Source: an uncultured Alphaproteobacteria bacterium (GTDB lineage Bacteria > Pseudomonadota > Alphaproteobacteria > RF32 > CAG-239). From it: a stretch of DNA of 64,000 nucleotides. The notes beneath the pieces are model-generated. The model did not search any database, had not been told where the DNA came from, and saw only the letters and a list, made by a program, of their open reading frames with translations. The DNA is taken from positions 5,100 to 69,099 of the forward strand of contig CALXUO010000030.1 in the NCBI GenBank assembly GCA_944391695.1, given 5' to 3'. A program made the translations under genes and the position numbers. Of this stretch, positions 1-64,000 are shown piece after piece (the first letter of the stretch is position 1; each line of letters opens with the position of its first letter).

Positions 1-1000
1 AAATAACGGAATAGTGTATCAAAATAATATGCTGGTCGGCGATGAGAGAAATGCCAAAGAATTGGTGCTTGACGGACAAAAAATAAATTATCCGCTGAAA
101 CCAATCATTGACGGAGAAAAAGGAGAAGAGAAAAAAATAAATAACGGACTTAAAAATCTGTATTTGAGCCATGCCGGATTTTTTGAATATGATGTCGGTG
201 AAAATTTGAAAGTGAAAGAATTGTTGAGTGTTGAAAACAGTAGCGGAGAAATGCCGGCAGCGGCTATGGTTGATATGGATTATGATGAATTGTTGAAAAA
301 TTATTTGCCGACAGGTAAAAAATATTCGGTAGCAATTTTGGCTGAGGGAAAATTTGTTTCAATGTTTGACAAGCCGCTAATCGAAGATGCCGAGATGATG
401 CTTAAAATGCCGCCTTTTTTGAGTGTGCCGCTTAAGGAGGGAAAGCTTTTGCTAATTGGGGACAGCGATATGTTTTCGGCTGATTTGTGGGATGCAAAAT
501 ATAAAGAAAAGCACGGTGCTTATGAGGCTGTTTTTATCTCGGATAATATGCGCTTTTTGCTAAAGGCGGTTGATTATATGACCGAAAGCGGGTATGTAAC
601 GTTAACTGCAAAAGCAGGGCGCCTAAGTCTTGTCAGTGTTGCTCAGGTGTTGCGAGATAAGGCTATGGCAAATTATGCCAAACAAAAGGAAGATAGTGAA
701 AAAAAATTAATGCAAATTAGGCAGAATATGGCTATTATAGGTGATAAGACCAAAGCAAAAGGTTTGACAACAATTGCTCAGTTTAAGGAAATGGAAGAGC
801 TGCAGAGAGCAGAAATGGCAGAAAATAGAAATTTGGAGCAAATAGAATATTTGATTAATAAAAAATATCAGAGCTATTTGGATTGGCTGGCATGGATGTT
901 GATTGTTGTTATTCCTTTGGGAGTTGCGGCGGCGATATGGGGGATTTATTATGCTTATGAGCTTGGGGCTAAGCGAAAAGCCAGGGAGTATGTGAAATGA
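1..1000 (+). CDS. ABC-type transport auxiliary component, GldG-like (C-terminal part; gene continues upstream of window)
   Basis: Frame is open from nt 2, so the GTG at 14 is an ORF-caller artifact. 'LLLIGDSDMFSADLW' and 'MRFLLKAVDYM' resemble the ABC_transp_aux (GldG) C-terminal region. Single C-terminal TM helix, as in GldG. Followed by a DUF4340-like gene. Confidence 0.4.
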   Translation, partial: NNGIVYQNNMLVGDERNAKELVLDGQKINYPLKPIIDGEKGEEKKINNGLKNLYLSHAGFFEYDVGENLKVKELLSVENSSGEMPAAAMVDMDYDELLKNYLPTGKKYSVAILAEGKFVSMFDKPLIEDAEMMLKMPPFLSVPLKEGKLLLIGDSDMFSADLWDAKYKEKHGAYEAVFISDNMRFLLKAVDYMTESGYVTLTAKAGRLSLVSVAQVLRDKAMANYAKQKEDSEKKLMQIRQNMAIIGDKTKAKGLTTIAQFKEMEELQRAEMAENRNLEQIEYLINKKYQSYLDWLAWMLIVVIPLGVAAAIWGIYYAYELGAKRKAREYVK

Positions 1001-1971
1001 ACAGAAAAAATTTAATCAGTGTAATCGTGTTGGCCGTTATTGCTTTGGCGGCAGTATGGAGCGGAGTTTATTTTAGTGTTTGGCAAAATGAAACTAAAAT
1101 GCAAGGAAAGTTGGTGTTTGCCAAGACTTTTGATTTGGGTGATAAGGTCGATCGCATAGTTATTACAACATCTGATGATGTGATTGATCTGAGGCAGGAG
1201 AAAAGTTTTTGGTTGGTGGAAAATAAAGGTGGATATTTTGCCGATTTTTCGACCATACATAGATTTTTGAGCTCAATAAATGAGAGTGTGTATGCAGTAA
1301 AACTGCCTTATAAAAAAGAAACGTTGAAAGAAAATTATTTGCTAAATCCCAAAGAAGATAAAAATTATGGCGGAATGCTGATACAGACTTTTGCCGGTAA
1401 TGAGATGCTTGATGAAATGATTGTGGGGTTGCCAGTAAAAGACGATAAATATTTCTTCGCCAGAAATCTTGAAAAAAAAGAGATTTGGTTGATTGATGGT
1501 GATTTTAATTTGCCGATTATGGCTAAGTATTGGCTTTTGAGGCCGGTGTTGTCGATACCTGAAAATCAGGTGGAAGTTCTTACCATAGGTGAAACATATG
1601 CTCAGCGTGAAAATAAGACACCTTATTTTAAGAATAATTTGGAACAAAATGTTAATGTCGAGGCACTACTTAATGTGTTGAGCGGTATTGTTGTGGTTGA
1701 TGCCAGGAAAAAAGATGATTTTGAAAAAGAAGGACTTGATAAATTGCAATCAAAAGTGATTGATGTGATTACCGTTTATGGCTTGGAAGTTATTTGCAGG
1801 CTTTATTATGACGATAAAAATGTTTGGCTGAACATTAATTTGACAACCACACCTCTTCCAATGTCGGCAGTTAATGATTATATCAGAGATAACCGCTTCT
1901 TGTACGATGGATGGTATTTTGAGATATCTCCGGGTCAGGGGCATATTTTGAGAGATTTTCGTCTGATATAG
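997..1971 (+). CDS. membrane-anchored hypothetical protein, DUF4340-like (GldG-associated)
   Basis: N-terminal TM helix 'ISVIVLAVIALAAVWSGVYF'. 4-nt overlap with the upstream gene suggests translational coupling. Size and position are typical of DUF4340 proteins downstream of gldG. Confidence 0.4.
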   Translation: MNRKNLISVIVLAVIALAAVWSGVYFSVWQNETKMQGKLVFAKTFDLGDKVDRIVITTSDDVIDLRQEKSFWLVENKGGYFADFSTIHRFLSSINESVYAVKLPYKKETLKENYLLNPKEDKNYGGMLIQTFAGNEMLDEMIVGLPVKDDKYFFARNLEKKEIWLIDGDFNLPIMAKYWLLRPVLSIPENQVEVLTIGETYAQRENKTPYFKNNLEQNVNVEALLNVLSGIVVVDARKKDDFEKEGLDKLQSKVIDVITVYGLEVICRLYYDDKNVWLNINLTTTPLPMSAVNDYIRDNRFLYDGWYFEISPGQGHILRDFRLI

Positions 1972-1983
1972 TTTGATTGAGGT

Positions 1984-5258: not shown

Positions 5259-5315
5259 ATAATTTGATGATAAAATTTTTAAACTGTGGAGAATTTTTAT
5301 GAAAGGTCGCAAATA

Positions 5316-7910
5316 ATGGCAAATAAGGAAATTAAAACACCTAAGGATTTGGAAAACCTGATTAAAAAAGTGAAAGAGGCGCAGAGGCGCTTTGCAACTT
5401 TTGATCAGGAAACGGTAAATAAAATTTTTAAGGCGGCGGCGACTGCTGCCGACAAGGAGCGAATCCCGCTGGCCAAGATGGCGGTTGAAGATACCGGAAT
5501 GGGAGTGGTGGAAGATAAAATTATTAAAAACCATTTTGCCTCAGAGTATATCTATAATAAATACAAAAATGATAAAACCTGCGGTATTATCAAATCGGAC
5601 AAAACAAACGGCGTTAAAATAGTGGCTGAGCCGTTGGGTGTTATGGCCGGAGTGGTGCCGACAACCAATCCTACATCAACAGCAATTTTTAAGGCACTTA
5701 TTTGTTTGAAAACTCGTAACGCTATTATATTTTCGCCGCACCCGAGGGCTAAAAAGTCGACAATTGAAGCGGCTAAAGTTGTTTATGAGGCGGCAGTTAA
5801 AGCCGGTGCACCGGAAAATATTATTGCCTGGATTGATGAACCATCGATTGAGCTAACGGATATTTTGATGACGCATCCTTTAGTTGACGGGATTTTGGCA
5901 ACCGGCGGGCCGGGGATGGTTAAGGCTGCTTATTCATCTGGAAAACCGGCGCTTGGAGTAGGGGCTGGTAATGTGCCGGCAATTATTGATGAGACGGCTG
6001 ATGTCGAGATGGCGGTTTCTTATATTTTGATGTCGAAAACCTTTGATAACGGAATGATTTGTGCTTCGGAACAATCGGTTATTGCGCTGAAGCAAGTTTA
6101 TGAAAAAGTTAAGAAAGAGTTTGTTTTGCGCGGAGCGCACTTGCTGGCTCCAAAAGAGGCTGAAAAGTTATCCAAAATTATTTTGACGCCCAAAGGCGTT
6201 AATCCGGAGATTGTTGGGCAGCCGGCGGTTAAGATTGCTAAAATGGCAGGAATTAACGTGGCTGATCATACTAAAATATTGTTGGCCGAACAAAAAGTCA
6301 TAGATGTGGCTAATCCGTATGCTCATGAAAAATTGTCGCCGATTTTGACACTTTATCAGGCAGATGATTTTGAAACGGCGGTTGACAAGGCTTTGCATTT
6401 GGTAGAGCTTGGCGGTATGGGGCATACTTCGGTTTTGTATACCGATACCAGAAAGCAAGACAGAGTTGATTATTTTGCCAAAAAGCTGCCGACCGGAAGG
6501 TTGCTGGTTAATTCGCCTTCATCGCAGGGAGGAATCGGCGATTTGTTTAACTTTAGATTGGAGCCGTCGTTGACATTGGGTTGTGGCTCGTGGGGTGGAA
6601 ACTCCGTTAGTGAAAATGTTGGGGTTAAGCATTTGTTGAATTATAAAACCGTTGCCGAGAGGAGAGAAAATATGTTGTGGTTTAGAGTACCGCCAAAAAT
6701 TTATTTTAAACGCGGAGCAACGGATTTTGCTTTGCGCGAGTTGGAAGGCAAAAAAAGAGCCTTTATTGTTACTGACAGGTATTTGTTTGATTCGGGTATG
6801 GTTAGCGCCATTACCAATGTTTTGGAAGAAATGGATATTGAGTATCAGATTTTCTTTGATGTGAAACCTGATCCTACAATATCTACCATTGAGGAAGCTT
6901 TGGTGATGATTAATGTGTTTAAGCCGGATGTTTTTATATCTTTTGGCGGCGGTTCGCCGATGGATGCGGCCAAAATTATGTGGCTTAAATATGAAAGGCC
7001 GGATTTGGAATTTGAAGATGTGGCTATGCGTTTTATGGATATCAGAAAACGTATTTGCGCTATCGGCGAATTGGGCAAAAAAGCTATGATGGTTGCTATT
7101 CCGACAACATCGGGTACCGGTTCTGAGGTTACGCCGTTTGCGGTCATTACCGATGATGTAAGTCATGTAAAATATGCTATTGCCGACTATGCTTTGACAC
7201 CTAATATGGCAATTGTTGATGCCAACTTTGTGGATAATATGCCAAAAGGCCTGACTTCGGCCGGCGGTATTGACGCCCTGGTTCATGCTTTGGAAGCCTA
7301 TGTTTCGGTTATGGCGACAAACTTTACCAACTCGGCGGCTTTGGAGGCGGCTAAGCAGGTGTTCCGATATCTGCCGCGAGCCTATAAAAACGGCGCCGAT
7401 GATCCGAAAGCCAGAGAGAAAATGCATCATGCGGCAACAATCGCCGGTATGGCTTTTGCCAATGCCTTTTTGGGTCTGTGTCACTCCATGGCGCATAAAC
7501 TCGGGGCCGCATTTAATATTCCGCACGGAATTGCCAATGCGTTGTTGATTTGTCAAATTATCAAATATAACGCAACTGATTGTCCGCGCAAGCAGGCGAT
7601 ATTCCCGCAATATAAAGTGCCGGAAGCTAAAAAACGCTATGCGCAGATTGCCAACAACCTAAAGCTTAAGGGCAGAACCGATGATGAAAAGGTTGCTGCT
7701 TTGATTGAGGCTATTGCCGAATTGAAAAAAGAAATTGAAATTCCGGCATCGATTAAAGAATGGGGCATATCGAAAAAAGATTTTGAAGCCAAGCTTGATT
7801 GGTTGGTTGAGAATGCTTTTGACGATCAGTGCACGGGAGCAAATCCGGTATATCCTTTGATGGAAGATATCAGGAAAATTTATATGGATGCCTTTGAAGG
7901 AAAAATATAA
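5316..7910 (+). CDS. adhE: bifunctional acetaldehyde-CoA / alcohol dehydrogenase
   Basis: N-terminal aldehyde dehydrogenase and C-terminal Fe-ADH domains ('GGGSPMDAAK'), 865 aa. N-terminus 'MANKEIKTPKDLENLIKKVKEAQRRFA' matches typical AdhE. RBS 'aaagg' upstream of ATG 5316; the GTG at 5286 is a caller artifact. Confidence 0.95.
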   Translation: MANKEIKTPKDLENLIKKVKEAQRRFATFDQETVNKIFKAAATAADKERIPLAKMAVEDTGMGVVEDKIIKNHFASEYIYNKYKNDKTCGIIKSDKTNGVKIVAEPLGVMAGVVPTTNPTSTAIFKALICLKTRNAIIFSPHPRAKKSTIEAAKVVYEAAVKAGAPENIIAWIDEPSIELTDILMTHPLVDGILATGGPGMVKAAYSSGKPALGVGAGNVPAIIDETADVEMAVSYILMSKTFDNGMICASEQSVIALKQVYEKVKKEFVLRGAHLLAPKEAEKLSKIILTPKGVNPEIVGQPAVKIAKMAGINVADHTKILLAEQKVIDVANPYAHEKLSPILTLYQADDFETAVDKALHLVELGGMGHTSVLYTDTRKQDRVDYFAKKLPTGRLLVNSPSSQGGIGDLFNFRLEPSLTLGCGSWGGNSVSENVGVKHLLNYKTVAERRENMLWFRVPPKIYFKRGATDFALRELEGKKRAFIVTDRYLFDSGMVSAITNVLEEMDIEYQIFFDVKPDPTISTIEEALVMINVFKPDVFISFGGGSPMDAAKIMWLKYERPDLEFEDVAMRFMDIRKRICAIGELGKKAMMVAIPTTSGTGSEVTPFAVITDDVSHVKYAIADYALTPNMAIVDANFVDNMPKGLTSAGGIDALVHALEAYVSVMATNFTNSAALEAAKQVFRYLPRAYKNGADDPKAREKMHHAATIAGMAFANAFLGLCHSMAHKLGAAFNIPHGIANALLICQIIKYNATDCPRKQAIFPQYKVPEAKKRYAQIANNLKLKGRTDDEKVAALIEAIAELKKEIEIPASIKEWGISKKDFEAKLDWLVENAFDDQCTGANPVYPLMEDIRKIYMDAFEGKI

Positions 7911-7952
7911 ATTGGTATAAATCAACCCCTTTGGTGGTAAAGGAGGCGCTTG

Positions 7953-8195
7953 ATGCCCAAAAAGATACAGATTTGTATGGGAAGTTCGTGTTTTGCACGT
8001 GGCAATAACAAAAATTTGGATGCCATTATGCGTTATATTAAAGATAACGGATTGGAGGCAGAAGTGGAAATTTCCGGATTGCGGTGTTGCAATCAGTGTG
8101 CAAACGGGCCGAATATTGCTATTGAAGGGGTTGAGTATCATAATGTTGATACCGGAACAATAATTGATATTTTGGATAAGACTTTTAAGGAGTAG
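7953..8195 (+). CDS. thioredoxin-like [2Fe-2S] ferredoxin (NuoE/HydC-type small protein)
   Basis: C-x4-C ... C-x3-C pattern ('CMGSSC' ... 'CCNQC'). Perfect RBS AGGAGG 6 nt before ATG 7953. Confidence 0.6.
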   Translation: MPKKIQICMGSSCFARGNNKNLDAIMRYIKDNGLEAEVEISGLRCCNQCANGPNIAIEGVEYHNVDTGTIIDILDKTFKE

Positions 8196-8200: not shown

Positions 8201-9958
8201 ATGTCTAGCCGCGAGCATCCGTTGTTTACAATTAAGAACGATTGCCAAGACTGTTATAAATGTGTGCGAGAGTGCCCGGTTAAGGCAATTAAGATTGAAG
8301 ATAATTCGGCGCAAATCGTGCCGGAATTGTGTGTGGCTTGCGGTAAATGCTACAAGGTTTGTCCGGTTAGGGCCAAACAAGATCGAGATGATGTTCCTCG
8401 GGCCAAAAATATGTTACAATCTGGTGAAAAAGTTTATGTATCGTTGGCGCCGTCGTGGGTGGCTGAATTTGAAAATGTTACCAAAGAGCAACTGTTGACG
8501 GCAATTAAGGCTTTGGGGTTTGCAGGGGTTAGTGAAACAGCTCTCGGAGCAGAAGAGGTTTCAGCTCATGTGGTAAGGTTTTTATCAAAGCAGAAAAAAG
8601 GATTGTTTCTGTCAACTGCTTGTCCGGCATTTGTTGAATACATTAATAAATATATGCCTGATTTGAGCGCTAATCTGACGCCAGTGCTTTCTCCGGTGTT
8701 GTCGCATTGTAAATTAATGCGAAAGAAATTGGGAGACGATATTAAAATAGTATTTGTGGGACCTTGCATTGCCAAAAAATTTGAGGCTGACAGAAATGCC
8801 GATTTGTTGAATTTGAGTATATCTTTTAGAGATTTGCGGCGCTGGTTTAGAGAAAAAGGAATTGATTATCATAATATAACCCCAGAAAAAGGAATTGATT
8901 TTGTTTATAAAAGAGCAGAAGAGGGGCGCTATTATCCGATTGAGGGGGGAATGATTGAAACAATTCGTCCTTATGGCGGAATGGATCATGTTTATATGAT
9001 GCAATTGACTGGGCTAGAAAACATTCAACGCGAGCTTGAAACAATAAGAGGAAATATACCTGAAAAGCCGGTGTTTATGGAATGTTTGGCTTGTGAGGGA
9101 GGATGTGTTAACGGGCCTTGCACCAGAAAACTTAAGTCTGGATTTGAAAAAAGAACCAAAATATTGGAGGATGCGAAGGTTTCGGAAAAAACCGGAAAAC
9201 GTAAGCCTGAGGTTGATATAGATAAAGAATATGCCCAAAATCCGGTGGAAAATCATACATATACCGAAGAGCAAATTAAGAGAGTTCTTAATATGCTTGG
9301 TAAATATACTTTGGAAGATGAGATTAACTGCAATGCCTGTGGGTATGATAATTGTCGTAATTTTGCCAAAGCTATTTTGGATGGCAAGGCTGAAATTGAT
9401 ATGTGCGTATCGCATATTAAACAGCAGGCGCAGCGCAAGGCCAATGCTTTGTTGAAATGTATTCCTTCACCGATTGTGATTGTTAATTCCAAGTTGTCAA
9501 TAATGGAATATAATGATTATTTCGTTAAAGAGTTTTGGAATGATGAAGAACATGGTGATATCTATGATAAAAACAATTTGATCGGGGCAAATTTGAGAGA
9601 TTTTATCGGTTTTACCAATTTGTTTTCCGCCTCGCTTGATTTGGGAGAAGATGTTAAAAGAGAAAATGCAAAACATCAGGGAAAAGTTTATGATGTGATG
9701 GTGTTTAATATTGAACAAAAGCAAGTAGTCGGCGGTGTTATTCAAGATGTGACCAATGTGGAAATAAAACGTGAGAAAATTGCCGAAAAGGCCAAAGAGG
9801 TTATAGAGAAAAACTTGGCAACGGTGCAACAAATTGCTTGTACTTTGGGTGAGCATATGGCAGAAACCGAGGTCTTGTTGCGATCAATTGCCAAAGATTA
9901 TGCCGCGGACGATTATGACAAGCCCAATATCACAATTCGCAATAAGAGGGATGAATAG
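8201..9958 (+). CDS. hydS: putative H2-sensing [FeFe]-hydrogenase with C-terminal PAS domain (HydS/HfsB-like, group C)
   Basis: Two N-terminal 4Fe-4S ferredoxin motifs (CxxCxxCxxxCP). H-cluster motifs are present but degenerate: L1 'TACP' instead of TSCCP, L2 'GPCIAKKFE', L3 'MECLACEGGCVNGP'. C-terminal ~180 aa is PAS-like. RBS AAGGAG. Confidence 0.8.
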   Translation: MSSREHPLFTIKNDCQDCYKCVRECPVKAIKIEDNSAQIVPELCVACGKCYKVCPVRAKQDRDDVPRAKNMLQSGEKVYVSLAPSWVAEFENVTKEQLLTAIKALGFAGVSETALGAEEVSAHVVRFLSKQKKGLFLSTACPAFVEYINKYMPDLSANLTPVLSPVLSHCKLMRKKLGDDIKIVFVGPCIAKKFEADRNADLLNLSISFRDLRRWFREKGIDYHNITPEKGIDFVYKRAEEGRYYPIEGGMIETIRPYGGMDHVYMMQLTGLENIQRELETIRGNIPEKPVFMECLACEGGCVNGPCTRKLKSGFEKRTKILEDAKVSEKTGKRKPEVDIDKEYAQNPVENHTYTEEQIKRVLNMLGKYTLEDEINCNACGYDNCRNFAKAILDGKAEIDMCVSHIKQQAQRKANALLKCIPSPIVIVNSKLSIMEYNDYFVKEFWNDEEHGDIYDKNNLIGANLRDFIGFTNLFSASLDLGEDVKRENAKHQGKVYDVMVFNIEQKQVVGGVIQDVTNVEIKREKIAEKAKEVIEKNLATVQQIACTLGEHMAETEVLLRSIAKDYAADDYDKPNITIRNKRDE

Positions 9959-15998: not shown

Positions 15999-16080
15999 TT
16001 TAATAAAATTATTTTATCTTGTCAATCAAAATAAAAAGCTTATCTTATAGTCATATGTAAATTTTTAAGGAGAAATGCGA

Positions 16081-18281: not shown

Positions 18282-18305
18282 CAGCGGCTTTATGGTTCAA
18301 AGACG

Positions 18306-52939: not shown

Positions 52940-52981
52940 AGAGTCTTCGGTTTATGAAATAAACCTAAGGCTCTTTTTTTT
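52940..52981. terminator. bidirectional terminator (hypothetical gene / rnfA convergent)
   Basis: 14-bp stem with one mismatch, loop atgaaat, then TTTTTTTT. Confidence 0.6.
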
Positions 52982-53555: not shown

Positions 53556-53557
53556 GG

Positions 53558-54154: not shown

Positions 54155-54737
54155 GGTTGCCTCCGGAATTAAAATTGCTAAATGCATCAAATGCCCGTTC
54201 AAGAGCTTTAAGGACGGCTCGAGAGCTTATGGTTGCTGCCGTTACGGCATCTACATCGCCACCGTCTTGCTTGACTTTTAATACCTGACGACGTGGATAA
54301 AATCCGTTGAATTGCTCCTTAAATTTCGGCTCATCAACTTTGGTCCCAAGCCCAGGTGTTTCGTGGCTTGAAATAACCTTGAAATTTTTAATGGAACCAT
54401 CAACATTAAATCCGGCCATAATTTCTATTCTGCCGCCAAAGCCGGTGTTGGTGTAAGCCTTGATGGCAACAGAGGTAAGCGCTCCATTTTGGCGGGCTGG
54501 ATACATCGTCAACTTATGTTTTTTGTTTTTGGTGGTGATTTTCATCTTCTCGGCAAACGGGTTGTTGTCAAACTCCCCTACGACCTCGGCTATGGCAGCC
54601 AATTCTTGATTATCTTTGGCTTGACGTATCGGTTCTAACGTAATGTCATGAACATAGCCTAAAATAAAAGCTGACAAGCAGGCGATGACAACTAAAGTTA
54701 CAATCGGTTTTATCGGACCTTGTTTTTTCTTTGACAT
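54147..54737 (-). CDS. rnfG: Rnf complex subunit G (FMN-binding)
   Basis: N-terminal TM helix and FMN_bind domain 'DAVTAATISSRAV'. TAATG-type overlap with rnfD. Confidence 0.85.
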   Translation of the reverse strand: MSKKKQGPIKPIVTLVVIACLSAFILGYVHDITLEPIRQAKDNQELAAIAEVVGEFDNNPFAEKMKITTKNKKHKLTMYPARQNGALTSVAIKAYTNTGFGGRIEIMAGFNVDGSIKNFKVISSHETPGLGTKVDEPKFKEQFNGFYPRRQVLKVKQDGGDVDAVTAATISSRAVLKALERAFDAFSNFNSGGNHE

Positions 54738-55726
54738 CAGCGTTTCTCCCCGTAGCAACGTTGAACTGCATATTTGTCAATTAGCGGCACAAGCGCGTTC
54801 ATTATCAAAATGGCAAAAGAAACTCCCTCGGGATAGGCGCTAAAAGACCTAATAATCACCGTTAATATTCCGCAGCCTATGGCAAAAATTATTTGCCCTT
54901 TAAGTGTCATTGGCGAAGTAGTATAATCGGTTGCCATAAAGATTGCACCAAGCATTAAACCACCAGATAACAAATGCGCTAAGGGCAAAAATTTCATATC
55001 GCCGGTCGTAAAATATAAGACGGAGGTAAACACCAAAACTGTTGCCACATAATAAACCGGAATATGCCAAGTGATTACTTTGCGATACAAAAGCCAGGCA
55101 AAACCCAACAACAACGCCAAAGCCGATATCTCGCCTATACAGCCGCCAATATTGCCTAAAAACATATCAAGATAGCTGGGCAAATCCTCCGGTGAATACA
55201 TCTGCGCGCTGGCCGAAGATGATGCGTCAATGCTCTTTAATATCCTAAGCGGTGTGGCTCCGGTCGAGCCGTCGGGGCTTACCATTTGCAAAAAGTGAGG
55301 CTTGGGCCAAACAGTCATTTGTACCGGAAACGAAATAAACAAAAATACTCTTCCAACCAAGGCCGGATTAAAAATGTTTTTGCCAAGCCCGCCAAAGCAC
55401 ATCTTGGCAACGATTATGGCCATGAAAGCTCCGATTAATATCATCCAGCAAGGCATGGTAGACGGTAAATTATAGGCCAACAGTATTCCGGTAATAACCG
55501 CTGAAAAATCAACCGTTGAGTTTTGGGTCTTAAGCCAATAGCGGCAAGCTAAATACTCAAACATGACACAAGCCGCAACCGAAGTTAAAATCACCCTTAG
55601 GGCATCTATTCCAAAAAATAATATTGCCGATATTGCCGCTGGCATTAAGGCTATTACCACATCAAGCATCAAAGCTTTGGTATCTCGATTGGTTTGCATA
55701 TGCGGATTGGTTGATATCTTTAACAT
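54737..55726 (-). CDS. rnfD: Rnf complex subunit D
   Basis: Polytopic NqrB/RnfD family protein. Confidence 0.9.
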   Translation of the reverse strand: MLKISTNPHMQTNRDTKALMLDVVIALMPAAISAILFFGIDALRVILTSVAACVMFEYLACRYWLKTQNSTVDFSAVITGILLAYNLPSTMPCWMILIGAFMAIIVAKMCFGGLGKNIFNPALVGRVFLFISFPVQMTVWPKPHFLQMVSPDGSTGATPLRILKSIDASSSASAQMYSPEDLPSYLDMFLGNIGGCIGEISALALLLGFAWLLYRKVITWHIPVYYVATVLVFTSVLYFTTGDMKFLPLAHLLSGGLMLGAIFMATDYTTSPMTLKGQIIFAIGCGILTVIIRSFSAYPEGVSFAILIMNALVPLIDKYAVQRCYGEKR

Positions 55727-55728
55727 GG

Positions 55729-57051
55729 TTACTTCTTTCTTATTTCCTGCTTAGCTATTTTACAGTAATCTAACAACGGAATGTTGGCCGGGCAAACATA
55801 GGCACAACAGCCGCATTCTATGCAATCTCCGGCGTGGAGTTTGCGCAAATCTTCGGCCGTGTCGTTAAAACTTATGGCTTGCTTGATGGCAAACGGACGA
55901 AGTCCTGCCGGACAACTTAGAGCACATTTGCCGCAACGAATGCAGCTTGATGCTTCTTTCTTGCTGAAATTTTCGTCCTTAAGAAGCAGTATACCCGATG
56001 TTAGCTTGGTAACCGGAGCTGATGTATTGACAATGGCATTGCCCATCATAGGACCGCCCAAAACTATTTTGTGAACATCAGTGCTCAACCCTCCGGTGGC
56101 CTCTATCAAATCAGAAACCGGCGTGCCTACCCTAACCTTATAATTGCAGGGATGCTGACATCCATCACCGGAAACAGTTACAATGCGCTCAAACAAAGGT
56201 TTGTTTTTTAGTACGGCTTCATAGACGGCAAAAACCGTGCCGACATTTTGGACTATGCATCCGACATCTATGGGCAATTTGCCTAAGGGAAGCTCTTTGC
56301 CGGTAATTGCTTTTATAAGCTGTTTTTCTCCTCCTTGGGGATATTTGGTGCGGCATACCTTAACGTTGACACCTATATAGCGCTTGCTTAAATTGGTTAA
56401 AATTTCAATTGCACGAGGTTTGTTTTCATCAATGGCAATAATGGCGTTTTGTATCCCTAATGCCCGGTTGATTACTCTGGCTCCCATAATGATTTCTTCG
56501 GCATGCTCTACCATTAATCTGTCATCGGCGGTCAAAAAAGGCTCACATTCAATGCCGTTTATAATCAACAACTCAACCTTTTTACCCTCGGGAACAGAGG
56601 TCTTTATCGGTGTGGGATAGCCGGCACCGCCCATGCCGACAATACCGCCTTCCCTTATCTTGGTGATAATCTCTTCTTGCGTCAGATTGATCTCTTTAAT
56701 GACCTCAGGTTTGCGGTTAACTGATTTTTCCCATTTGTCACCTTCGGTTTTGATGGTTATCATCTTTTCTTCGTAGCCGCTTGCTGACGGTAAATCTTCA
56801 ATTTTTATAACCTCGCCGGAAACGGAAGAATGAACGTCTGATGAAACAATGCCGTCGGCATCGGCCAATAAAGTGCCTACTTTTACTTTGTCTCCTTTGG
56901 ATACCAAAATTTTGGCCGGTGATCCGATGTGCTGCTTTACCGGAATATTGACAATCTCGGGGATTTGAGCCTCGACTATTGGGCAATCAGCGGTTATTTT
57001 ATATTTTTCAATATGCAGGCCGCCCATCGGAAATGTATATTCTTTAATCAT
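55729..57051 (-). CDS. rnfC: Rnf complex subunit C (NADH-binding, 2x[4Fe-4S])
   Basis: 'GGAGYPT' plus C-terminal 'CIRCGKCALSCP' and 'CIECGCCAYVCP'. Confidence 0.9.
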   Translation of the reverse strand: MIKEYTFPMGGLHIEKYKITADCPIVEAQIPEIVNIPVKQHIGSPAKILVSKGDKVKVGTLLADADGIVSSDVHSSVSGEVIKIEDLPSASGYEEKMITIKTEGDKWEKSVNRKPEVIKEINLTQEEIITKIREGGIVGMGGAGYPTPIKTSVPEGKKVELLIINGIECEPFLTADDRLMVEHAEEIIMGARVINRALGIQNAIIAIDENKPRAIEILTNLSKRYIGVNVKVCRTKYPQGGEKQLIKAITGKELPLGKLPIDVGCIVQNVGTVFAVYEAVLKNKPLFERIVTVSGDGCQHPCNYKVRVGTPVSDLIEATGGLSTDVHKIVLGGPMMGNAIVNTSAPVTKLTSGILLLKDENFSKKEASSCIRCGKCALSCPAGLRPFAIKQAISFNDTAEDLRKLHAGDCIECGCCAYVCPANIPLLDYCKIAKQEIRKK

Positions 57052-57874
57052 GAATCCTCTCTTTATAAATGATGGCTGAGGTCGGACAGTTTTGGGCTAA
57101 TTCGGCCCCAAACTCTCCGGCGTCTACCTCCGGAGGAATATAGGAAAGATTGTTTTCAATCTTTATCTTGTCGCAGATTTTGGCGCATTTCATGCAGCCA
57201 ATACAAGCTTTGGAGCAATTTTTACGAGCAACCGCCCCTTTTTGTTTGTTGCGGCAGGCAACATAGACCATGCCGCCAGCCAGACTCTGAGGACGAATCT
57301 CAAACAAACCGCGCGGACATATCTTTACACAGGCTCCGCAAGAAGTACACTTCTTGCTGTCAACAACCGGCATGCCGCTTGCCTCATCAAACGACAAAGC
57401 TCCGAATTTGCACACCTTTACACAATCGCCCAAATGCAAACATCCATCCGGACAACCACTCTGTCCGCTTGATATGCGATTGGCAATGCGGCAGGAACTT
57501 ACGGCTTCATAGTTTACTTTGGCCGGAGCATTCTGACAATTGCCTTGACAGCGTAAAACAGCAACGGTGGGGGCCTTGTCGGTGGCTGCAAACCCCCTTA
57601 GAGAGGCAATTTTCTGCATTACTGCCGCCCCGCCTACCGGACAATATAAATTGGCAAACGATGCCTCATCGGCTCTGGCACAGGCCGTGGCAAAGTCGGC
57701 ACATCCGGCTTTGCCGCATGCACCGCAATTGGCCTGCGGCAAAGCAGCCGCTATACTTATTACCATTTCGTCGGTTTTGACGGCAAATCTTTTGGATACA
57801 ATGTATAGTACCAAAGCGGCAATAAAGGCCGTGCCGCCGAGGATAAGTATGTTTAGCAATATCAAATCATCCAT
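57044..57874 (-). CDS. rnfB: Rnf complex subunit B (polyferredoxin)
   Basis: N-terminal TM helix and multiple 4Fe-4S motifs. Confidence 0.9.
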   Translation of the reverse strand: MDDLILLNILILGGTAFIAALVLYIVSKRFAVKTDEMVISIAAALPQANCGACGKAGCADFATACARADEASFANLYCPVGGAAVMQKIASLRGFAATDKAPTVAVLRCQGNCQNAPAKVNYEAVSSCRIANRISSGQSGCPDGCLHLGDCVKVCKFGALSFDEASGMPVVDSKKCTSCGACVKICPRGLFEIRPQSLAGGMVYVACRNKQKGAVARKNCSKACIGCMKCAKICDKIKIENNLSYIPPEVDAGEFGAELAQNCPTSAIIYKERIHD

Positions 57875-58292
57875 TTGCTTTGTGCCTTATAATCTTAAAT
57901 TTAATATCTGAGGTAATTTTACTTCTCATCAAGAATAAAACAAAATAATAAGGAATCAAGACAATTATGCCAGATATTCCGCTCTTAAAATCATCGAATC
58001 CTATAAACTGAAGTCCGATAATTGTTGCAACCAACAAAATAAGCGGTATGACATAGGCGTAAATGACTGCTTTTATTCCACCGGTTAGCGATGTTGCAAT
58101 ATCCACCTCCTCGCCTATTTTAAGGGTTGAGGCTTTGGGGTCTTTGATGACAATAATCTTTTCTTTGCTCTCGCTTAAACCGCAAACTCCCTTGGCCAAG
58201 CAAGAAGAACACGCACTTTGGCTTGTTATCTTCAACTCCACAACATCGCCTTTGATACTGATTATGCGAGCCTGATGTCTTATTTCCTCCAT
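57867..58292 (-). CDS. rseC: RseC/MucC-family (SoxR-reducing-system-type) small membrane protein
   Basis: N-terminal 'CSSCLAKGVCG' motif plus two C-terminal TM helices. Immediately upstream of rnfB. Start refined to the ATG with a GAGGA RBS. Confidence 0.65.
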   Translation of the reverse strand: MEEIRHQARIISIKGDVVELKITSQSACSSCLAKGVCGLSESKEKIIVIKDPKASTLKIGEEVDIATSLTGGIKAVIYAYVIPLILLVATIIGLQFIGFDDFKSGISGIIVLIPYYFVLFLMRSKITSDIKFKIIRHKANG

Positions 58293-58296
58293 AAGT

Positions 58297-59298
58297 TTAT
58301 TCCTCAAAAATTGCTTTGGCCGCGCTTGAAAGATTGGGCTTTAGATTATTGTCAAATATTATGACTTTGAGGTCATATTTATTGGCAAAAGCCAAGCCCT
58401 CTTCTACCCCCATGGCCATAATTGCCGTGGCGTAGGCATCGGCGTACATGCAAGAATCGTGAAAAACACTGACCGATAGAGCATCGGTTTGGATTGGACG
58501 ACCTGTCTTATAAGAAATGGTATGGGCCAAAATATTGCCGTCTTGCTTATAAAAATTACGATAGTTGCCTGAGGTGGCAACCGCTAAATTGCTGATTGAA
58601 ACAACCATTACATTGTCATAGGCGCCTGATTGCGGACGATTAATGCCTATATTCCAGGAATCTCCTTGGTCAGAACGTGAACCTCCTACTTTTATTTCTC
58701 CGCCAATTTCTATCATGTAATCATGATATCCTTTGCTTGAAAGAAGCTCGGCAACTTTATCTACCCCGTATCCCTTGGCTATGGCCGAAAGATTGATATA
58801 AGTTGCGGAATCTTTTTTGCGAAGCTGCTTGAAATCTTTTGAAAATACCAATTTGTCAAAACCAGATGTCTTTAGGGCTTGGGTTATTTCTTGAGACGAC
58901 GGATTTTTCATATCTCCGGCGCCAAAACCCCACAAATCTATAAGTTTGCCAAGTGTTGGATCAAACCACCCTTGAGATTGGCGGTTGACTTTTGCCGCCG
59001 CTGCCATAACTTCTGCCATATCTTGAGATAAAGGTATGTCTATTCCTTTATTGCTGCGATTAATTTGCGATATTTCGCTTGTTTCATCAAATACCGACAT
59101 CGACCGGTTTACTTTATCAAGTACTGAGGCAATTTCGGCACTTATATTTTTATCAGGTTTTGCGGTCCTGATTTTTATTGTGTAGTAGGTGCCAAAAATG
59201 TTTCCCTTTATAATCTGCTGGTTGGGAGAATAAAAATATATCCCGATTGCTGATGCTACCACAACAACCAATATTGAAATGTAAGCAAAAATACGCAT
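58297..59298 (-). CDS. apbE: FAD:protein FMN transferase (ApbE)
   Basis: ApbE family protein with signal/TM N-terminus. Expected partner for flavinylation of RnfG and RnfD. Start refined to the second ATG, with an AAGG RBS. Confidence 0.85.
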   Translation of the reverse strand: MRIFAYISILVVVVASAIGIYFYSPNQQIIKGNIFGTYYTIKIRTAKPDKNISAEIASVLDKVNRSMSVFDETSEISQINRSNKGIDIPLSQDMAEVMAAAAKVNRQSQGWFDPTLGKLIDLWGFGAGDMKNPSSQEITQALKTSGFDKLVFSKDFKQLRKKDSATYINLSAIAKGYGVDKVAELLSSKGYHDYMIEIGGEIKVGGSRSDQGDSWNIGINRPQSGAYDNVMVVSISNLAVATSGNYRNFYKQDGNILAHTISYKTGRPIQTDALSVSVFHDSCMYADAYATAIMAMGVEEGLAFANKYDLKVIIFDNNLKPNLSSAAKAIFEE

Positions 59299-59412
59299 AT
59301 TTATACCTTGCATAAATGTGAAGTAGTTTTTTACAAAACATAAAAAATGTTTTATCGTTAACGGGATATAAAGTCAACAACTCAAGTATTTTTATATATA
59401 AGGGGCTATACC

Positions 59413-60108
59413 ATGCTTGATAAAATAATCAATAAATTCAAACTGTTAATCGCAGAATATCGCAATTCTGAATTTTGCAAAAATGCCAAATGCACCAAAG
59501 AGGCTTGGCAGAAAAAAATTAATTCTTGGGGAAAAGAATTATATAAAAACGGAATTAACGCCAACATGATTTCAATCTTTGGTTTTGTTATCGGTATGAT
59601 GGCGATAAACTTTTTGGCTATGAATATGTATTTTGAGGCTTTGATGTGTATCCTGATTAACAGATTTTGCGATGTTTTGGACGGCGCGGTGGCCAGGTGC
59701 GAAAAAGCAAATAAATTCGGCATATTTTTGGATGCTTGTTTGGATTTTATCTTTTACGCCGGAGTTATTTTTGGATTTGCGCTTGCTAATCCGGAAGAAA
59801 ATGCCGTGGCGGCTTGCTTCTTGCTGTTTGGTTTTACGGCTTCGGCCTCGGCTATGTTGGCGTATGGTGTCGTAACATATGACAACAGGGCCCCGAAAGA
59901 ACAAGAGACGCTTGGTGCTTCGCCTTTTTATTTGGGCGGTCTGGCGCAAGGTTTTGAGACTTTGGTTGCTTTTGTGTTGTTATGCATTATGCCGTTTGCC
60001 TTTTTGCCGATTGCCATTGCTTTGGGATGTTGGTGTATTATAAAGGCTTTGATCATAATCTCTTCGGCTTATTATAAACTGGTAATTTTGGAAAAAAGCA
60101 AAAAATAA
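59413..60108 (+). CDS. CDP-alcohol phosphatidyltransferase family protein (PgsA/Pcs-like)
   Basis: 'DVLDGAVAR...G...D...D' motif matches D-x2-DG-x2-AR...G-x3-D-x3-D. Polytopic. Confidence 0.6.
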   Translation: MLDKIINKFKLLIAEYRNSEFCKNAKCTKEAWQKKINSWGKELYKNGINANMISIFGFVIGMMAINFLAMNMYFEALMCILINRFCDVLDGAVARCEKANKFGIFLDACLDFIFYAGVIFGFALANPEENAVAACFLLFGFTASASAMLAYGVVTYDNRAPKEQETLGASPFYLGGLAQGFETLVAFVLLCIMPFAFLPIAIALGCWCIIKALIIISSAYYKLVILEKSKK

Positions 60109-61628
60109 TGAGGTGGCTTTTTGCACTTTTGCTGGTTATTTTCTTATCTCCGTTGCCGACAAAAGCGGCAGACGAAATCAATATAACAACCTTTACACGT
60201 TATGACAAAGACGGGTTGTTTGAAGCGCTGATGGAATTTGATATTAAACCGGAGTGGCACATCTTTGCACCTTATGAACAAGAATTTGGCTCGCCGCTTA
60301 CCATAAAATGGCGTTTGCCCGAGGGTGCAACCATCTTGGAAGAAAGTTTTAGCAAAACTAAGCATTATAATCTGGACGGATTGTCTTTCGACGGGTATGA
60401 AGGAAAGGCTTTTTATAAGACAACCATTAAAACTCTTGAACCTGTTGATAAATTTGAAGCGGTAATTAATTGGCTGGCTTGTAAAGACGAGTGTATCAGA
60501 GGACAAAAGGTGCTGACGATATTGCCGATTGACACCATAGATTTTGACAAGATTATTGATAATGCCAGTAAGAGTTTTGCTGATGAGCAATCTTTGCCCC
60601 CAATAAACTGGTTAATTATTTTGGCAATGGCTTTGGGCGGCGGAATAATTCTTAACCTGATGCCTTGTGTGTTGCCGATTTTGAGCATAAAAATAATATC
60701 CCTGGCCGAAGTGAAAAAAAGAACGCGTCATTTTGAGGCTTGGTTTTATACCTTGGGCGTGGTGATTTCGATGTTGGCAATGGCTACATTATTAATGATT
60801 GTGAGAAAAACCGATGCGGCCGCCAACTGGGGATTTCAAATGCAATCACCGTGGTTCGTCGGAATTATGCTGATTATCTTTATCATTTTAGCCTTGATGA
60901 TGCTTGATATTGTGAATTTTAAATATGCTTGGCTGAATAAGCTCTCGTTATTAAAATTTGACGGGGTGAAAACCAATGCTTTTATGACCGGATTGCTGGC
61001 GGTGTTGATTGCCAGTCCTTGCTCGGCTCCGTTTATGGGGGCTGCTATCGGGTATGCCTTGATGGCTCCGGTTTATATCTATTTTCCGGTATTTTTGGCT
61101 CTGGGGATAGGATATTCCCTGCCCTTTGCGTTGCTGGCTTACTCGCCCAAATTGCTTCATAAAATACTGCCCAAACCCGGTAAATGGATGGTTGTTTTGA
61201 AAAAAATACTCAGCATCCCAATTGTGCTTACTTGTTTGTGGTTGGCATGGATTTTGGCAACACAAACAGGAATTATACAACCTAAAGAAAATGTCGCGTG
61301 GGAAGAATATTCCGGCGACAAAGTCAAAACCGCACTGGCTGATAAACAGCCGGTATTTATTGATTTTACCGCCAAATGGTGTATTACTTGTTTGGTTAAT
61401 AAAAAAGCGGCTTTGCAATCGGATAAATTAAAAAAATTGGCCAAGAAAAAAAATATTTTGTTACTTAGGGCCGATATTACCGATCAAAACGTAATAGCTT
61501 CTGCCGGGCTTAAAAGTTATGGCCGGGCAAGCGTGCCACTTTATATATATTATAACGGCAAATCAACAGATTATGTCGTTTTGCCGCAAATATTGACACC
61601 GCAAATTTTGGAAGAATATTTGCAATAG
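60108..61628 (+). CDS. dsbD: thiol:disulfide interchange protein DsbD-like (signal peptide, N-domain, CcdA-type TM core, C-terminal thioredoxin)
   Basis: TM core with 'LMPCVLPIL' and 'ASPCSAPF' cysteines. C-terminal Trx 'FTAKWCITCLVN'. Confidence 0.8.
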   Translation: MRWLFALLLVIFLSPLPTKAADEINITTFTRYDKDGLFEALMEFDIKPEWHIFAPYEQEFGSPLTIKWRLPEGATILEESFSKTKHYNLDGLSFDGYEGKAFYKTTIKTLEPVDKFEAVINWLACKDECIRGQKVLTILPIDTIDFDKIIDNASKSFADEQSLPPINWLIILAMALGGGIILNLMPCVLPILSIKIISLAEVKKRTRHFEAWFYTLGVVISMLAMATLLMIVRKTDAAANWGFQMQSPWFVGIMLIIFIILALMMLDIVNFKYAWLNKLSLLKFDGVKTNAFMTGLLAVLIASPCSAPFMGAAIGYALMAPVYIYFPVFLALGIGYSLPFALLAYSPKLLHKILPKPGKWMVVLKKILSIPIVLTCLWLAWILATQTGIIQPKENVAWEEYSGDKVKTALADKQPVFIDFTAKWCITCLVNKKAALQSDKLKKLAKKKNILLLRADITDQNVIASAGLKSYGRASVPLYIYYNGKSTDYVVLPQILTPQILEEYLQ

Positions 61629-61693: not shown

Positions 61694-62365
61694 ATGAAAT
61701 TATTTAAACATAAAAATACTGATATCAAGAAATTTATTACCGCAATATGGGACTTTTGGACCAGCAAAACCGGAGCGTTTTTGTTGGCGGTATCCGCAAT
61801 TGTCATCGGGTGGTATCAATTTTATATCAATAAACCGATTTTGAAATATGATACCGAAACAATATCTTTTATCTCATCGCAGAACGACAATGACTACAAA
61901 GTAAATGTCCATGGCAAAGAATATAATGACCTATATCTTACAAGAGTAACTTTACAAAACAAAGGCGCCTCGGCCCTGTCAGGGAAAGATGTGTCAAAAA
62001 TCGGGCATAATCCGATAAGAATTGTTGTCCCCGATGATGCCAAGATGGTGCATTTTACTCTGGATAAGACCATAACCACACCTGATTTGACAGCAAGCTT
62101 AAAGAAAATTGACGGTGATTTGGTGATTGAGTTTGACTTTTTGAACTCTGATTATCAAATCGGGGCATCAATTTTGCATGAAAACCCAAATGCCAAATTT
62201 AAGGTTGAAGGAAGCGCGCTTAATGTCAACTCCATCACAAAAGAATGGAGCGACAAGCAAATCAAATTTTGGACATTTTGGATTATGGGCGGATTATATC
62301 TGATATTGGTGGCAGTTTATCTCTACAACCACATCAAAAGAAGATTTAGACTAAAGAGAAACTAG
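61694..62365 (+). CDS. hypothetical membrane protein (TM helices at both termini)
   Basis: ATG 61694 preferred over the upstream extension. No motif recognised. Confidence 0.4.
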   Translation: MKLFKHKNTDIKKFITAIWDFWTSKTGAFLLAVSAIVIGWYQFYINKPILKYDTETISFISSQNDNDYKVNVHGKEYNDLYLTRVTLQNKGASALSGKDVSKIGHNPIRIVVPDDAKMVHFTLDKTITTPDLTASLKKIDGDLVIEFDFLNSDYQIGASILHENPNAKFKVEGSALNVNSITKEWSDKQIKFWTFWIMGGLYLILVAVYLYNHIKRRFRLKRN

Positions 62366-64000
62366 CGACCTTGTGGAATTTTGGCCATGGCTACAGCCCT
62401 ATCCCAAGGCAGAGTTTTGCCAGTGTTCGACTGTGGCTTATTTAAGGCCAGTACTTTTCCGTCTTGCTCGACAATGTTGTATTTGGCAATTAATTCTTTG
62501 GCAATATCAGGATGTAATTGCCCTACTATGCTTTCTTTAATGGTCGAGGCGGTAAATTTGGCTTTAATATCGGCATTAACCTCGGCTAGTTCACGCACGA
62601 CAAAAGTTCTATCGTCGTTTTCTAACGGATTACGAGAGTGTTTATTGGGATACTGGTAATATTTCATATCTTTGCTGCCGATAATATTTTTATTGAGGCA
62701 TAATATGTCGGCCATATTGGCTTCATATAGCCAACCAGTAAAACCGTTGCGGTTAAGCAATCCAAAGTTGCGCTTACCTCCAACATTACGATAATAGGAA
62801 AAAGCTTCACGAACTTTGTAGTCATCATTGACAGCGCAGCAAACTTTGGAACTTTTAAATTTACCTTCGTCATTGTTATAAATGAACATCTCAACCGCCA
62901 ATAATTGCTCTGCCGATAATTCGCGATTGATGTACTTAAGTTGCGGATATACGTATTTTTCCAAATGCCTTTTGACTGCAGCTACGGCCTCATCATGTGT
63001 AACCTTAGTGTTTTTGTTAACCAAAGTACCATCGGCTAATACGCGAGAACCGTATCCTACGGTATATTTGCCGGCCGAACAACGATATGCTTTTTCATGA
63101 TACCCTTCATAGCCGGATAATAAAAAGATAAACTCTTTTTCATATTCTTTGGCGGTTTTGCAGTTTTGATAAAAATTTTCATCGGTGGTATTGTATTTAG
63201 CAAAAAAAGCCTCTTTTGCTTTTTGCTCGGCCAGTTTTTGATCCTCTATTTCTTGTTTTAATCTGATATTATCTTTTATAGCCGGAGTTATTTTCATACC
63301 GCCCCATACACTAAGCGGAATAAGCGCTTTCAACGCTCCTTTGCGAATATAAGGCAATGCTTTTTCATCAATACAGCTTTTAAATTTGTTATCTGCAAAA
63401 CGTAGTTTTTTATCAAGGAGATAATAAACAGCAGCCGGTAAAGCTCCGGCAGTACCAGCCAAAATATTTAGGGTTTGTTCTCCGCTCCATTTGAATGTTT
63501 GAGCCAAACCTTGTCCAATTTTTTTGAAACAATATTTGGTATGGAGCTCGCTAAGATTTTTAATGACCTTCTTGTCAAGAGTTATGGCAAAATGTCGTTG
63601 CGGATGTTCTTTTTGAGCTCTGGCGGTTTTTCTGATGGCCGATAAATATTGGCGCCGTGCTTTTTTGAGCGATTTTGCTATAATTTCCTCTGCTGATAAA
63701 CCTTGTTTCGTTTGCCTAAACGTGGGGCTAATGGAAAATTCCGGGATGATTTCCTTATTCTGAGCATGAGCTAAAATTGTTTTTAGTCTTTCCGAAGGTT
63801 TTATGCCATCTGTTAAAAGCTTAGGTGTGTTCGTTTGAATTTTTTTTATATCTGTTATTTTGACATTAAGCGGTTCTAGCATATCTTGAGAATGACGTTT
63901 GTTATATCTGTCATACCTTTTGTAATGTTCATCTTGGAACGAAAAAAGATCTTCTACAAATTTTTCGGCATCGCCTTTATAGCTGGGAGGTAAAACAAAG
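62362..64000 (-). CDS. large hypothetical protein with a GH24 (phage/T4-type) lysozyme-like domain; 5' end beyond the window
   Basis: 'EGYHEKAYRCSAGKYTVGYGS' matches the GH24 catalytic Glu and Y-[RK]-[CD]-xxG-x-[WY]-TVG-[YH]-G motif. The reading frame stays open upstream of the ORF-track start (63882) to nt 64000, so the gene is truncated by the window. Confidence 0.6.
   Translation of the reverse strand, partial: FVLPPSYKGDAEKFVEDLFSFQDEHYKRYDRYNKRHSQDMLEPLNVKITDIKKIQTNTPKLLTDGIKPSERLKTILAHAQNKEIIPEFSISPTFRQTKQGLSAEEIIAKSLKKARRQYLSAIRKTARAQKEHPQRHFAITLDKKVIKNLSELHTKYCFKKIGQGLAQTFKWSGEQTLNILAGTAGALPAAVYYLLDKKLRFADNKFKSCIDEKALPYIRKGALKALIPLSVWGGMKITPAIKDNIRLKQEIEDQKLAEQKAKEAFFAKYNTTDENFYQNCKTAKEYEKEFIFLLSGYEGYHEKAYRCSAGKYTVGYGSRVLADGTLVNKNTKVTHDEAVAAVKRHLEKYVYPQLKYINRELSAEQLLAVEMFIYNNDEGKFKSSKVCCAVNDDYKVREAFSYYRNVGGKRNFGLLNRNGFTGWLYEANMADILCLNKNIIGSKDMKYYQYPNKHSRNPLENDDRTFVVRELAEVNADIKAKFTASTIKESIVGQLHPDIAKELIAKYNIVEQDGKVLALNKPQSNTGKTLPWDRAVAMAKIPQGR

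Follow-up and report, generated by a model that had tools for sequence, protein, structure and literature searches.

A probable gut fermenter among the Alphaproteobacteria: hydrogenase, Rnf and oxygen-defence genes on a 64-kb contig segment of the RF32/CAG-239 lineage

Introduction

Few Alphaproteobacteria are strict anaerobes that produce H2, and those that do are relevant to the debate over whether the ancestor of mitochondria was capable of fermentation. We have analysed a stretch of 64 kb of contig CALXUO010000030.1 (the window) from an uncultured alphaproteobacterium, in which adhE, an [FeFe]-hydrogenase module, an rnf operon and genes for oxygen defence share the DNA with housekeeping genes such as recO and parC. 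This locus raises the question of whether these genes belong to an alphaproteobacterium that lives by fermentation, and where such an organism lives. Our analysis indicates, with a probability of about 0.88, that the window is chromosomal DNA of an uncultured fermenting gut alphaproteobacterium of the order RF32, family CAG-239, which has a small genome of ~1.6–2 Mb and inhabits the anoxic vertebrate gut.

The group was first seen in the human gut as 'Azospirillum sp. CAG:239/260' and 'Acetobacter sp. CAG:977/267' (PMC4967309). [FeFe]-hydrogenases and PFO were reported in these genomes (Degli Esposti et al. 2016, PMC4967309), as were hydrogenase maturases for CAG:239, CAG:260 and CAG:977 (PMC4967309), and CAG:239 was later classed as a strict anaerobe without any terminal oxidases (Degli Esposti et al. 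2019, PMC6431628). RF32 genomes are reduced, with a mean size of 1.59 Mb over 38 genomes and loss of amino-acid biosynthesis (Xie et al. 2021, PMC8199421). RF32 appears in many 16S gut surveys and recurs, as yet uncultured, in the gut communities of humans and livestock. Our literature search for a dedicated genomic or cultivation study of RF32 returned only 16S surveys, catalogues of metagenome-assembled genomes (MAGs) and the two papers of Degli Esposti and colleagues.

Earlier publications already cover the lineage, the reduction of its genomes, the presence of [FeFe]-hydrogenases and the absence of oxidases, and public databases already contain the proteins of the window, on an 82,081-bp NCBI contig. 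An initial annotation, which had read the window as anaerobic, fermentative gene content in an alphaproteobacterium with a reduced genome, was essentially right in outline about a picture already known. The additions made here are at the level of annotation only. They are an hfs-type operon of sensor and hydrogenase beside adhE, the rnfBCDGEA gene order, a prolyl-tRNA synthetase (ProRS) of a type unusual for Alphaproteobacteria, and a hydrogenase without a close donor outside the clade.

Results

Composition and open-reading-frame analysis gave a GC content of 39.9%, a coding fraction of 94.7% and 59 genes for the window. Gene identities were set by NCBIfam and Pfam models, whose scores were compared with the curated cut-offs (Table 1). 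About 18 of the 59 genes serve anaerobic redox metabolism or O2 defence, a share far above chance expectation. The metabolic genes named in the initial annotation (AdhE, Rnf, rubrerythrin, a flavodiiron protein and an iron-containing alcohol dehydrogenase, Fe-ADH) were all found, with identified coordinates and NCBIfam or Pfam matches.

Table 1. Features identified in the window (positions count from its first nucleotide; scores in bits)
Feature	Position	Strand	Evidence
adhE, bifunctional acetaldehyde-CoA/alcohol dehydrogenase	5286..7910	+	NF010378, 1375, cut-off 951
Small thioredoxin-like [2Fe-2S] ferredoxin, first gene of the module	7950..8195	+	PF01257, 32.9, cut-off 24.8
HydS-type (group C/D-like) [FeFe]-hydrogenase homologue, putative H2 sensor	8201..9958	+	Fe_hyd_lg_C, Fer4, PF04060
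PP2C/SpoIIE-family Ser phosphatase (HfsC-like)	9962..11137	+	PF07228, 39.6
Second small thioredoxin-like [2Fe-2S] ferredoxin	11160..11435	+	PF01257, 28.5
Monomeric group B [FeFe]-hydrogenase (HfsD/HydA2-like), predicted ferredoxin-dependent H2 producer	11429..12880	+	TIGR04105, 542.7, cut-off 450
ProRS, archaeal/eukaryote-like type I	12961..14478	-	TIGR00408, 467.6, cut-off 437; ends in ARCY
Rubrerythrin	15012..15551	-	NF045767, 239.5, cut-off 200; Pfam Rubrerythrin and rubredoxin-like domain
Fur-family regulator, PerR-like	15570..15959	-	Best NCBIfam matches are PerR models, 89 and 85, both below cut-off
Class A flavodiiron protein (O2/NO reductase)	16075..17259	+	ODP beta-lactamase and flavodoxin domains
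kdsA-recO-parC-DUF6898, housekeeping block and clade-wide synteny anchor	17280..21528	+	Pfam and NCBIfam
dusB-trkA-hfq-hflX-tRNA-Pro(TGG)	26183..30255	+	Profile matches
Ribosomal protein S4	36171..36782	+	NF003717, 240.7; carries the 17-residue motif quoted in the initial annotation
FucO-type lactaldehyde reductase (Fe-ADH)	48326..49546	-	NF007911, 674.4, cut-off 537
rnfBCDGEA, ferredoxin:NAD+ oxidoreductase (ion-pumping)	52980..57874	-	RnfA, E, G, D and C above TIGR subfamily cut-offs
rseC-like gene and apbE (FMN transferase), upstream of rnf	57867..59313	-	PF04246, 88.1; ApbE NF007774, 189.9, below cut-off
DsbD-like thiol:disulfide reductase	60108..61628	+	DsbD_TM and Thioredoxin_7 domains

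The last gene of the module downstream of adhE encodes a monomeric group B [FeFe]-hydrogenase. All three H-cluster motifs, L1 to L3, are intact in this protein (TSCCP, GPCLAKRTE and EVMCCEGGCVAG, the last of them also read as EVMCCEGGC). The HydS protein encoded upstream of it scored below all catalytic hydrogenase cut-offs. Its H-cluster domain is matched in part only (Fe_hyd_lg_C, residues 76–306), with a Fer4 domain at the N-terminus and an extra PF04060 iron-sulfur site at residues 375–403. Motif L1 reads STACP in place of TSCCP, so the proton-relay Cys is replaced by Ala; L2 and L3 are kept. The Ala corresponds to position A131 of the Thermotoga sensory protein TmHydS, which has the same Cys-to-Ala change (PMC10055695). 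At the C-terminus the PAS_9 model was spanned in full by a weak match (E = 0.12, 13.1 bits). An AlphaFold2 model, built on a 15-sequence alignment of database matches, had a mean predicted local distance difference test score (pLDDT) of 46.9, with values below 50 across most of residues 409–585.

The sub-cut-off scores, the STACP motif, the extra PF04060 site and the PP2C phosphatase gene downstream together argue that this protein is a putative sensory homologue of the HydS type and not a second catalytic enzyme. The initial annotation had counted two [FeFe]-hydrogenases; the group B enzyme stands as such (542.7 bits on TIGR04105), and the other becomes a candidate sensor. Two small [2Fe-2S] ferredoxin genes, missing from the earlier gene list, complete the module in the order Fd-HydS-PP2C-Fd-HydA. 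Another clade species has the whole module at a separate locus (L084–L087), where a small ferredoxin gene likewise comes first. The PP2C gene directly follows HydS both there and in the related loci L004–L007 and L010.

Genes for oxygen defence lie between this module and kdsA. The PerR-like gene and the rubrerythrin gene are divergent from the flavodiiron gene, with an intergenic region of 115 bp between the two units. The flavodiiron protein scored 354.9 bits on the flavorubredoxin model, below the cut-off, and has no rubredoxin domain. On the other side of the window, one operon encodes six Rnf subunits (RnfA–RnfE and RnfG), with apbE adjacent. RnfA, RnfE, RnfG, RnfD and RnfC span 52980–57051, and the RnfB-like Fe-S protein (57044–57874) is below its cut-offs (60.2 against 68.7 and 285 against 437 bits). 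The rnf operon was also found in the related locus L009, at 72–91% identity.

The housekeeping genes place the window in the Alphaproteobacteria. A scan with ParC against one genome per bacterial species found 115 relatives, of which the best 80 (L004–L083) are 72–94% identical. Nearly all the relatives are MAGs titled Alphaproteobacteria, Rhodospirillaceae, Azospirillaceae, Azospirillum or Acetobacter. No identical genome was found among these species-representative genomes; the best ParC match reaches only 94%, so a distinct species within the same genus-level group is a possible source of the window. The order kdsA-recO-parC is kept in nearly all of the best 80 loci. In ~35 related loci a gene for a 1404-aa protein and dusB-trkA-hfq-hflX follow downstream of ParC, as in the window (dusB to hflX at 26183–30150, hfq at 28599–28814). 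One contig among these relatives, L082 (CAVEOB010000005.1, 1–22217), is titled '[Ruminococcus] gnavus', yet it carries the clade's kdsA-recO-parC (ParC 75%) and hfq-hflX; the bin has probably been mislabelled or contaminated.

The 1404-aa protein itself (21616–25830, +) has N-terminal membrane segments followed by a long, low-complexity, coiled-coil-like body, and it matched no Pfam model. It directly follows parC-DUF6898 in many clade members, at 36–81% identity.

Other markers agree with ParC. The best match of Hfq in the PDB is 6gwk (86.8 bits, next 63.7) and that of KdsA is 3fs2 (333 bits, next 308), which we take to be Caulobacter and Brucella entries, respectively. Members of the S4 cluster are named Alphaproteobacteria. 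The 90% cluster of the rubrerythrin includes CDB53520.1 and Candidatus Scatocola, and the name Azospirillum sp. also occurs across the S4 and rubrerythrin clusters; Candidatus Scatocola belongs to the Rhodospirillaceae in the NCBI taxonomy, and CDB53520.1 lies within the accession series listed for Azospirillum sp. CAG:239 (PMC4967309). Alphaproteobacterial MAGs of the RUG and RGIG series (e.g. RUG14511 and RGIG4207) are given as Alphaproteobacteria; RF32; CAG-239 in the accessible part of the supplement of PMC8199421. The alphaproteobacterial affiliation proposed in the initial annotation is borne out by the labels of the ParC relatives, the S4 cluster names, the Hfq and KdsA matches and the trkA-hfq-hflX order, and the marker genes that it had named (S4 with its quoted motif, RecO, ParC and dusB-trkA-hfq-hflX) are all present.

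The GC skew is +0.13 to +0.34 over the + strand genes (1–44 kb) and about 0 over the - strand genes (44–64 kb). This pattern suggests that replication-strand and coding-strand skews are additive, and the window appears to lie within one replichore, with neither origin nor terminus inside it. The strong positive skew had prompted us to consider an origin from Firmicutes, which is contradicted by the housekeeping genes and by the clade membership.

The ProRS gene does not share this ancestry signal. On NF008979, which we take to be the model of the alphaproteobacterial type, it scored only 99.6 bits against a cut-off of 550. Its best PDB match is the Thermus enzyme 1h4q (426 bits), with 44.6 bits on 2i4l. 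Clade relatives, including L039 and L074, carry the same ProRS type at 73–94% identity. By these scores the enzyme is assigned to the Thermus/eukaryote type and not to the usual alphaproteobacterial one, which argues against vertical alphaproteobacterial ancestry of this gene; the alphaproteobacterial-type ProRS was probably replaced long ago. The initial annotation had used this eukaryote-like ProRS as a marker for Alphaproteobacteria, a use that the scores do not allow. The order rnfBCDGEA, presumably the Bacteroides/Chlorobium type and not the Rhodobacter order rnfABCDGEH, hints that the descent of Rnf, too, is atypical for Alphaproteobacteria.

AdhE, HydS and the group B hydrogenase are common across the clade. 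Homologues of AdhE at 75–90% identity are all from Alphaproteobacteria MAGs wherever they are named. Those of the group B hydrogenase (60–87%) are from Alphaproteobacteria or Rhodospirillales MAGs, and those of HydS (60–99%) from Alphaproteobacteria, Rhodospirillales or Azospirillum, again wherever named. Some of these homologues lie on contigs of 1.86–1.89 Mb. In a library clustered at 50% identity, the clade appeared as one hydrogenase representative at 60%. The next representatives, at 44–52%, were from another Alphaproteobacteria MAG, Sedimentisphaerales, Bacteroidales, Planctomycetia and Pleomorphochaeta. Outgroups of such mixed phyla, none above 52%, indicate that there is no recent hydrogenase donor. 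Judged from these comparisons, the anaerobic genes of the window are old within the clade and without a close donor.

Contiguity and composition were also compared. The stretch from HydS through the flavodiiron gene to kdsA-recO-parC is contiguous in independent assemblies of different studies (L004–L007, L010 and L012). The mean GC content is 43.4% for the anaerobic genes and 40.1% for the others; the ranges overlap (KdsA 47.7%, GalE 45.9%, ParC 42.7%), and so does codon usage.

No respiratory gene was found among the 59 genes of the window in searches with NCBIfam and Pfam profiles, as the initial annotation had also stated. By a rough estimate, about one such gene would be expected per 59, from which we infer a probability of ~0.4 of seeing none; the absence from 64 kb is, taken alone, weak evidence.

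The habitat of this clade is the vertebrate gut, not protists or invertebrates. The record titles of the ParC relatives name human (Hadza, Nepal, UMGS, HGM), infant, roe deer, yak, sheep, buffalo, horse and rabbit guts, and CAG:239 accounted for 11.6% of reads from a single human stool sample (PMC4967309). The protist or invertebrate-gut habitat suggested in the initial annotation is not supported by these titles, and its proposed check on coding density speaks against an endosymbiont-style genome, as the window is 94.7% coding and holds lipopolysaccharide (LPS), outer-membrane, sensor-kinase and transporter genes. Its description as anaerobic, fermentative and reduced agrees with the clade-wide AdhE, HydS and group B hydrogenase, the lack of oxidases in CAG:239 (PMC6431628) and the mean genome size of 1.59 Mb (PMC8199421); clade contigs reach 1.86–2.03 Mb. 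The lifestyle is indeed uncommon for the class, as had been claimed, yet it was already on record.

The window contains one ribosomal protein gene and no rRNA gene. Envelope and repair functions are represented by an outer-membrane beta-barrel protein, KdsA (LPS) and DNA repair genes. Other genes encode the DsbD-like protein, transporters (ABC, MATE), a PAS histidine kinase, Hsp20, QueH, Sir2, GalE, UDG and several unknowns. A 943-aa protein (36821–39652, +) combines an N-terminal half with multiple membrane passes and a very acidic C-terminal half of repeat-like sequence; it matched no Pfam model. A 506-aa protein (62362–63882, -) carries a central phage-lysozyme domain (PF00959) with long flanks, and no other phage genes were seen nearby.

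Discussion

The gene content suggests the following scheme, every step of which is read from the genes. Sugars, probably including fucose or rhamnose, would be converted to acetyl-CoA, with ferredoxin reduced presumably by pyruvate:ferredoxin oxidoreductase (PFOR) encoded outside the window. Reduced ferredoxin could be re-oxidised along two routes. The group B hydrogenase would release H2, and Rnf would pass the electrons to NAD+ and pump ions, so that energy would be conserved as an ion gradient. NADH would be consumed by AdhE (acetyl-CoA to ethanol) and by FucO (lactaldehyde to propanediol). HydS and the PP2C phosphatase, whose genes lie after adhE and before that of the catalytic hydrogenase, would probably tune the split between H2 and ethanol to the H2 pressure, as H2-sensing control of this kind has been proposed for Thermoanaerobacterium hfs and Ruminococcus albus hydS (PMC11837493). 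Rubrerythrin, the flavodiiron protein and the PerR-like repressor would serve to clear traces of O2 and peroxide.

Three other explanations of the window were weighed against a strictly anaerobic gut fermenter. The cell could be a facultative anaerobe or microaerophile, with genes outside the window for a high-affinity oxidase of the cytochrome bd or cbb3 type or for a chain of anaerobic respiration. With about one respiratory gene expected per 59 in a typical respiring alphaproteobacterium, to find none in only 64 kb is unremarkable; the O2-defence genes mean that the cell meets oxygen, a DsbD-type protein is present, and other Rhodospirillaceae with [FeFe]-hydrogenases retain high-affinity oxidases (PMC6431628). 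However, CAG:239, the namesake of the family, lacks terminal oxidases (PMC6431628), RF32 genomes are reduced (PMC8199421), and the combination of rubrerythrin, flavodiiron protein and PerR is a typical kit of strict anaerobes. The DsbD-like protein is not evidence of cytochrome c, as DsbD alone is uninformative on cytochromes. We regard a respiring organism of this kind as improbable. It seems to us very improbable that anaerobic protists or invertebrate guts harbour the organism as a reduced symbiont and that it does not live freely in the vertebrate gut lumen. Its clade has small genomes, the GC content is 40%, rumen and hindgut samples are rich in ciliates, and a paper on dung-beetle MAGs mentions RF32 (PMC12509527). 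Against this stand the relatives from human, infant, ruminant, horse and rabbit gut metagenomes, the abundance of CAG:239 in the stool sample cited above, the high coding density, the KdsA, outer-membrane beta-barrel, sensor kinase, ABC and MATE transporter, Hsp20 and DNA repair genes of the window, and the mreBCD-pbp2-rodA genes of its relatives.

The anaerobic genes might also not be truly alphaproteobacterial, either through a chimera of assembly or binning or because an island was acquired very recently from Firmicutes or Bacteroidota. Features typical of anaerobes outside the Alphaproteobacteria are the hfs-like operon, the order rnfBCDGEA and the ProRS type; the anaerobic genes are higher in GC than the others, and the related contig L082 bears the [Ruminococcus] gnavus title. 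But the GC ranges overlap, the nearest homologues of AdhE, HydS and HydA all belong to the same clade down to 60% identity, and outgroups do not exceed 52%. We rejected this explanation on the contiguity in independent assemblies and the overlapping composition, and give it next to no credence. A strictly anaerobic fermenter of the vertebrate gut, with these genes as its own, is the reading that we prefer.

Several points weigh against this preferred reading. PFOR, the HydEFG maturases and ATP synthase were not found within the 64-kb window. That respiration is absent is concluded from gene inventories published for relatives and not from the source genome, of which 64 kb was seen. The assignment to RF32 draws on the labels of MAGs, similarity and a supplement whose accessible part lists RUG and RGIG MAGs other than those matched. 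A PAS domain in HydS could be demonstrated neither by sequence (PAS_9, E = 0.12) nor by the low-confidence model, and RnfB, ApbE, the PerR-like regulator and the flavodiiron protein score under curated equivalog cut-offs. Finally, the block from the hydrogenase to the flavodiiron gene stands beside kdsA only in the nearest relatives (ParC 88–94%), which indicates that gene order is fluid; in L009 the rnf operon occupies the place beside kdsA.

It is highly doubtful that the fermentative kit (group B hydrogenase with HydS, AdhE and Rnf) is an old, vertically inherited alphaproteobacterial trait and not an import of the gut era; the data do not show an alphaproteobacterial origin or a eukaryotic affinity for it. 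If it were vertically inherited, RF32 would offer a present-day model of the mitochondrial ancestor that the hydrogen hypothesis proposes, a facultative anaerobe producing H2, as Degli Esposti et al. have reportedly argued. A non-alphaproteobacterial source of eukaryotic H2 metabolism was argued for by Stairs et al. (PMC7449678).

Comparison with known systems

The module resembles hfsABCD of Thermoanaerobacterium and hydS-hydA2 of Ruminococcus albus, in which, as in the window, a hydrogenase homologue with an extra sensory part is followed by a Ser phosphatase and a ferredoxin-linked monomeric hydrogenase (PMC11837493). It adjoins adhE, a gene whose flux is affected by hfsB in Thermoanaerobacterium (PMC11837493). 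Unlike hfsABCD, it has an alphaproteobacterial host, and small [2Fe-2S] ferredoxins replace HfsA.

The group B hydrogenases of Bacteroides and gut Firmicutes (PMC12578642) belong to the same TIGR04105 subfamily, with an intact H-cluster and presumably the same role in re-oxidising ferredoxin during gut fermentation. Re-oxidation of PFOR-reduced ferredoxin by this enzyme was shown in gut Bacteroides (PMC12578642); the main text of that paper does not mention Alphaproteobacteria or Pseudomonadota. The window hydrogenase is at most 52% identical to group B representatives from outside the clade.

The PerR-rubrerythrin-flavodiiron set is a clostridial defence against oxidative stress. The window is alike in that a Fur/PerR-like gene lies between the rubrerythrin gene and the divergent flavodiiron gene, a layout that resembles a PerR regulon, whereas its regulator scores under the PerR equivalog cut-offs.

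Rhizobial genomes have the order ntrBC-ntrYX-trkA-hfq-hflX (PMC2848018), of which trkA-hfq-hflX is common to the window. In contrast to the Rhizobiales, dusB is directly followed by trkA in the window (26183–28522) and ntrBC-ntrYX is absent from it; the missing ntr genes fit a loss of regulatory genes from a reduced genome.

Among the Rhodospirillaceae, Phaeospirillum, Pararhodospirillum and Rhodospirillum rubrum likewise combine an alphaproteobacterial background with [FeFe]-hydrogenase and fermentative enzymes. They keep high-affinity oxidases, photosynthesis and large genomes, whereas the clade of the window is reported to be oxidase-free and reduced. It is with this RF32/CAG-239 clade that the likeness is closest: the window shares with it housekeeping identities of 72–94%, the kdsA-recO-parC order, AdhE, HydS and the group B hydrogenase, and the gut habitat, and the published traits of the clade that match are [FeFe]-hydrogenases, PFO, the lack of terminal oxidases and genomes of ~1.6 Mb.

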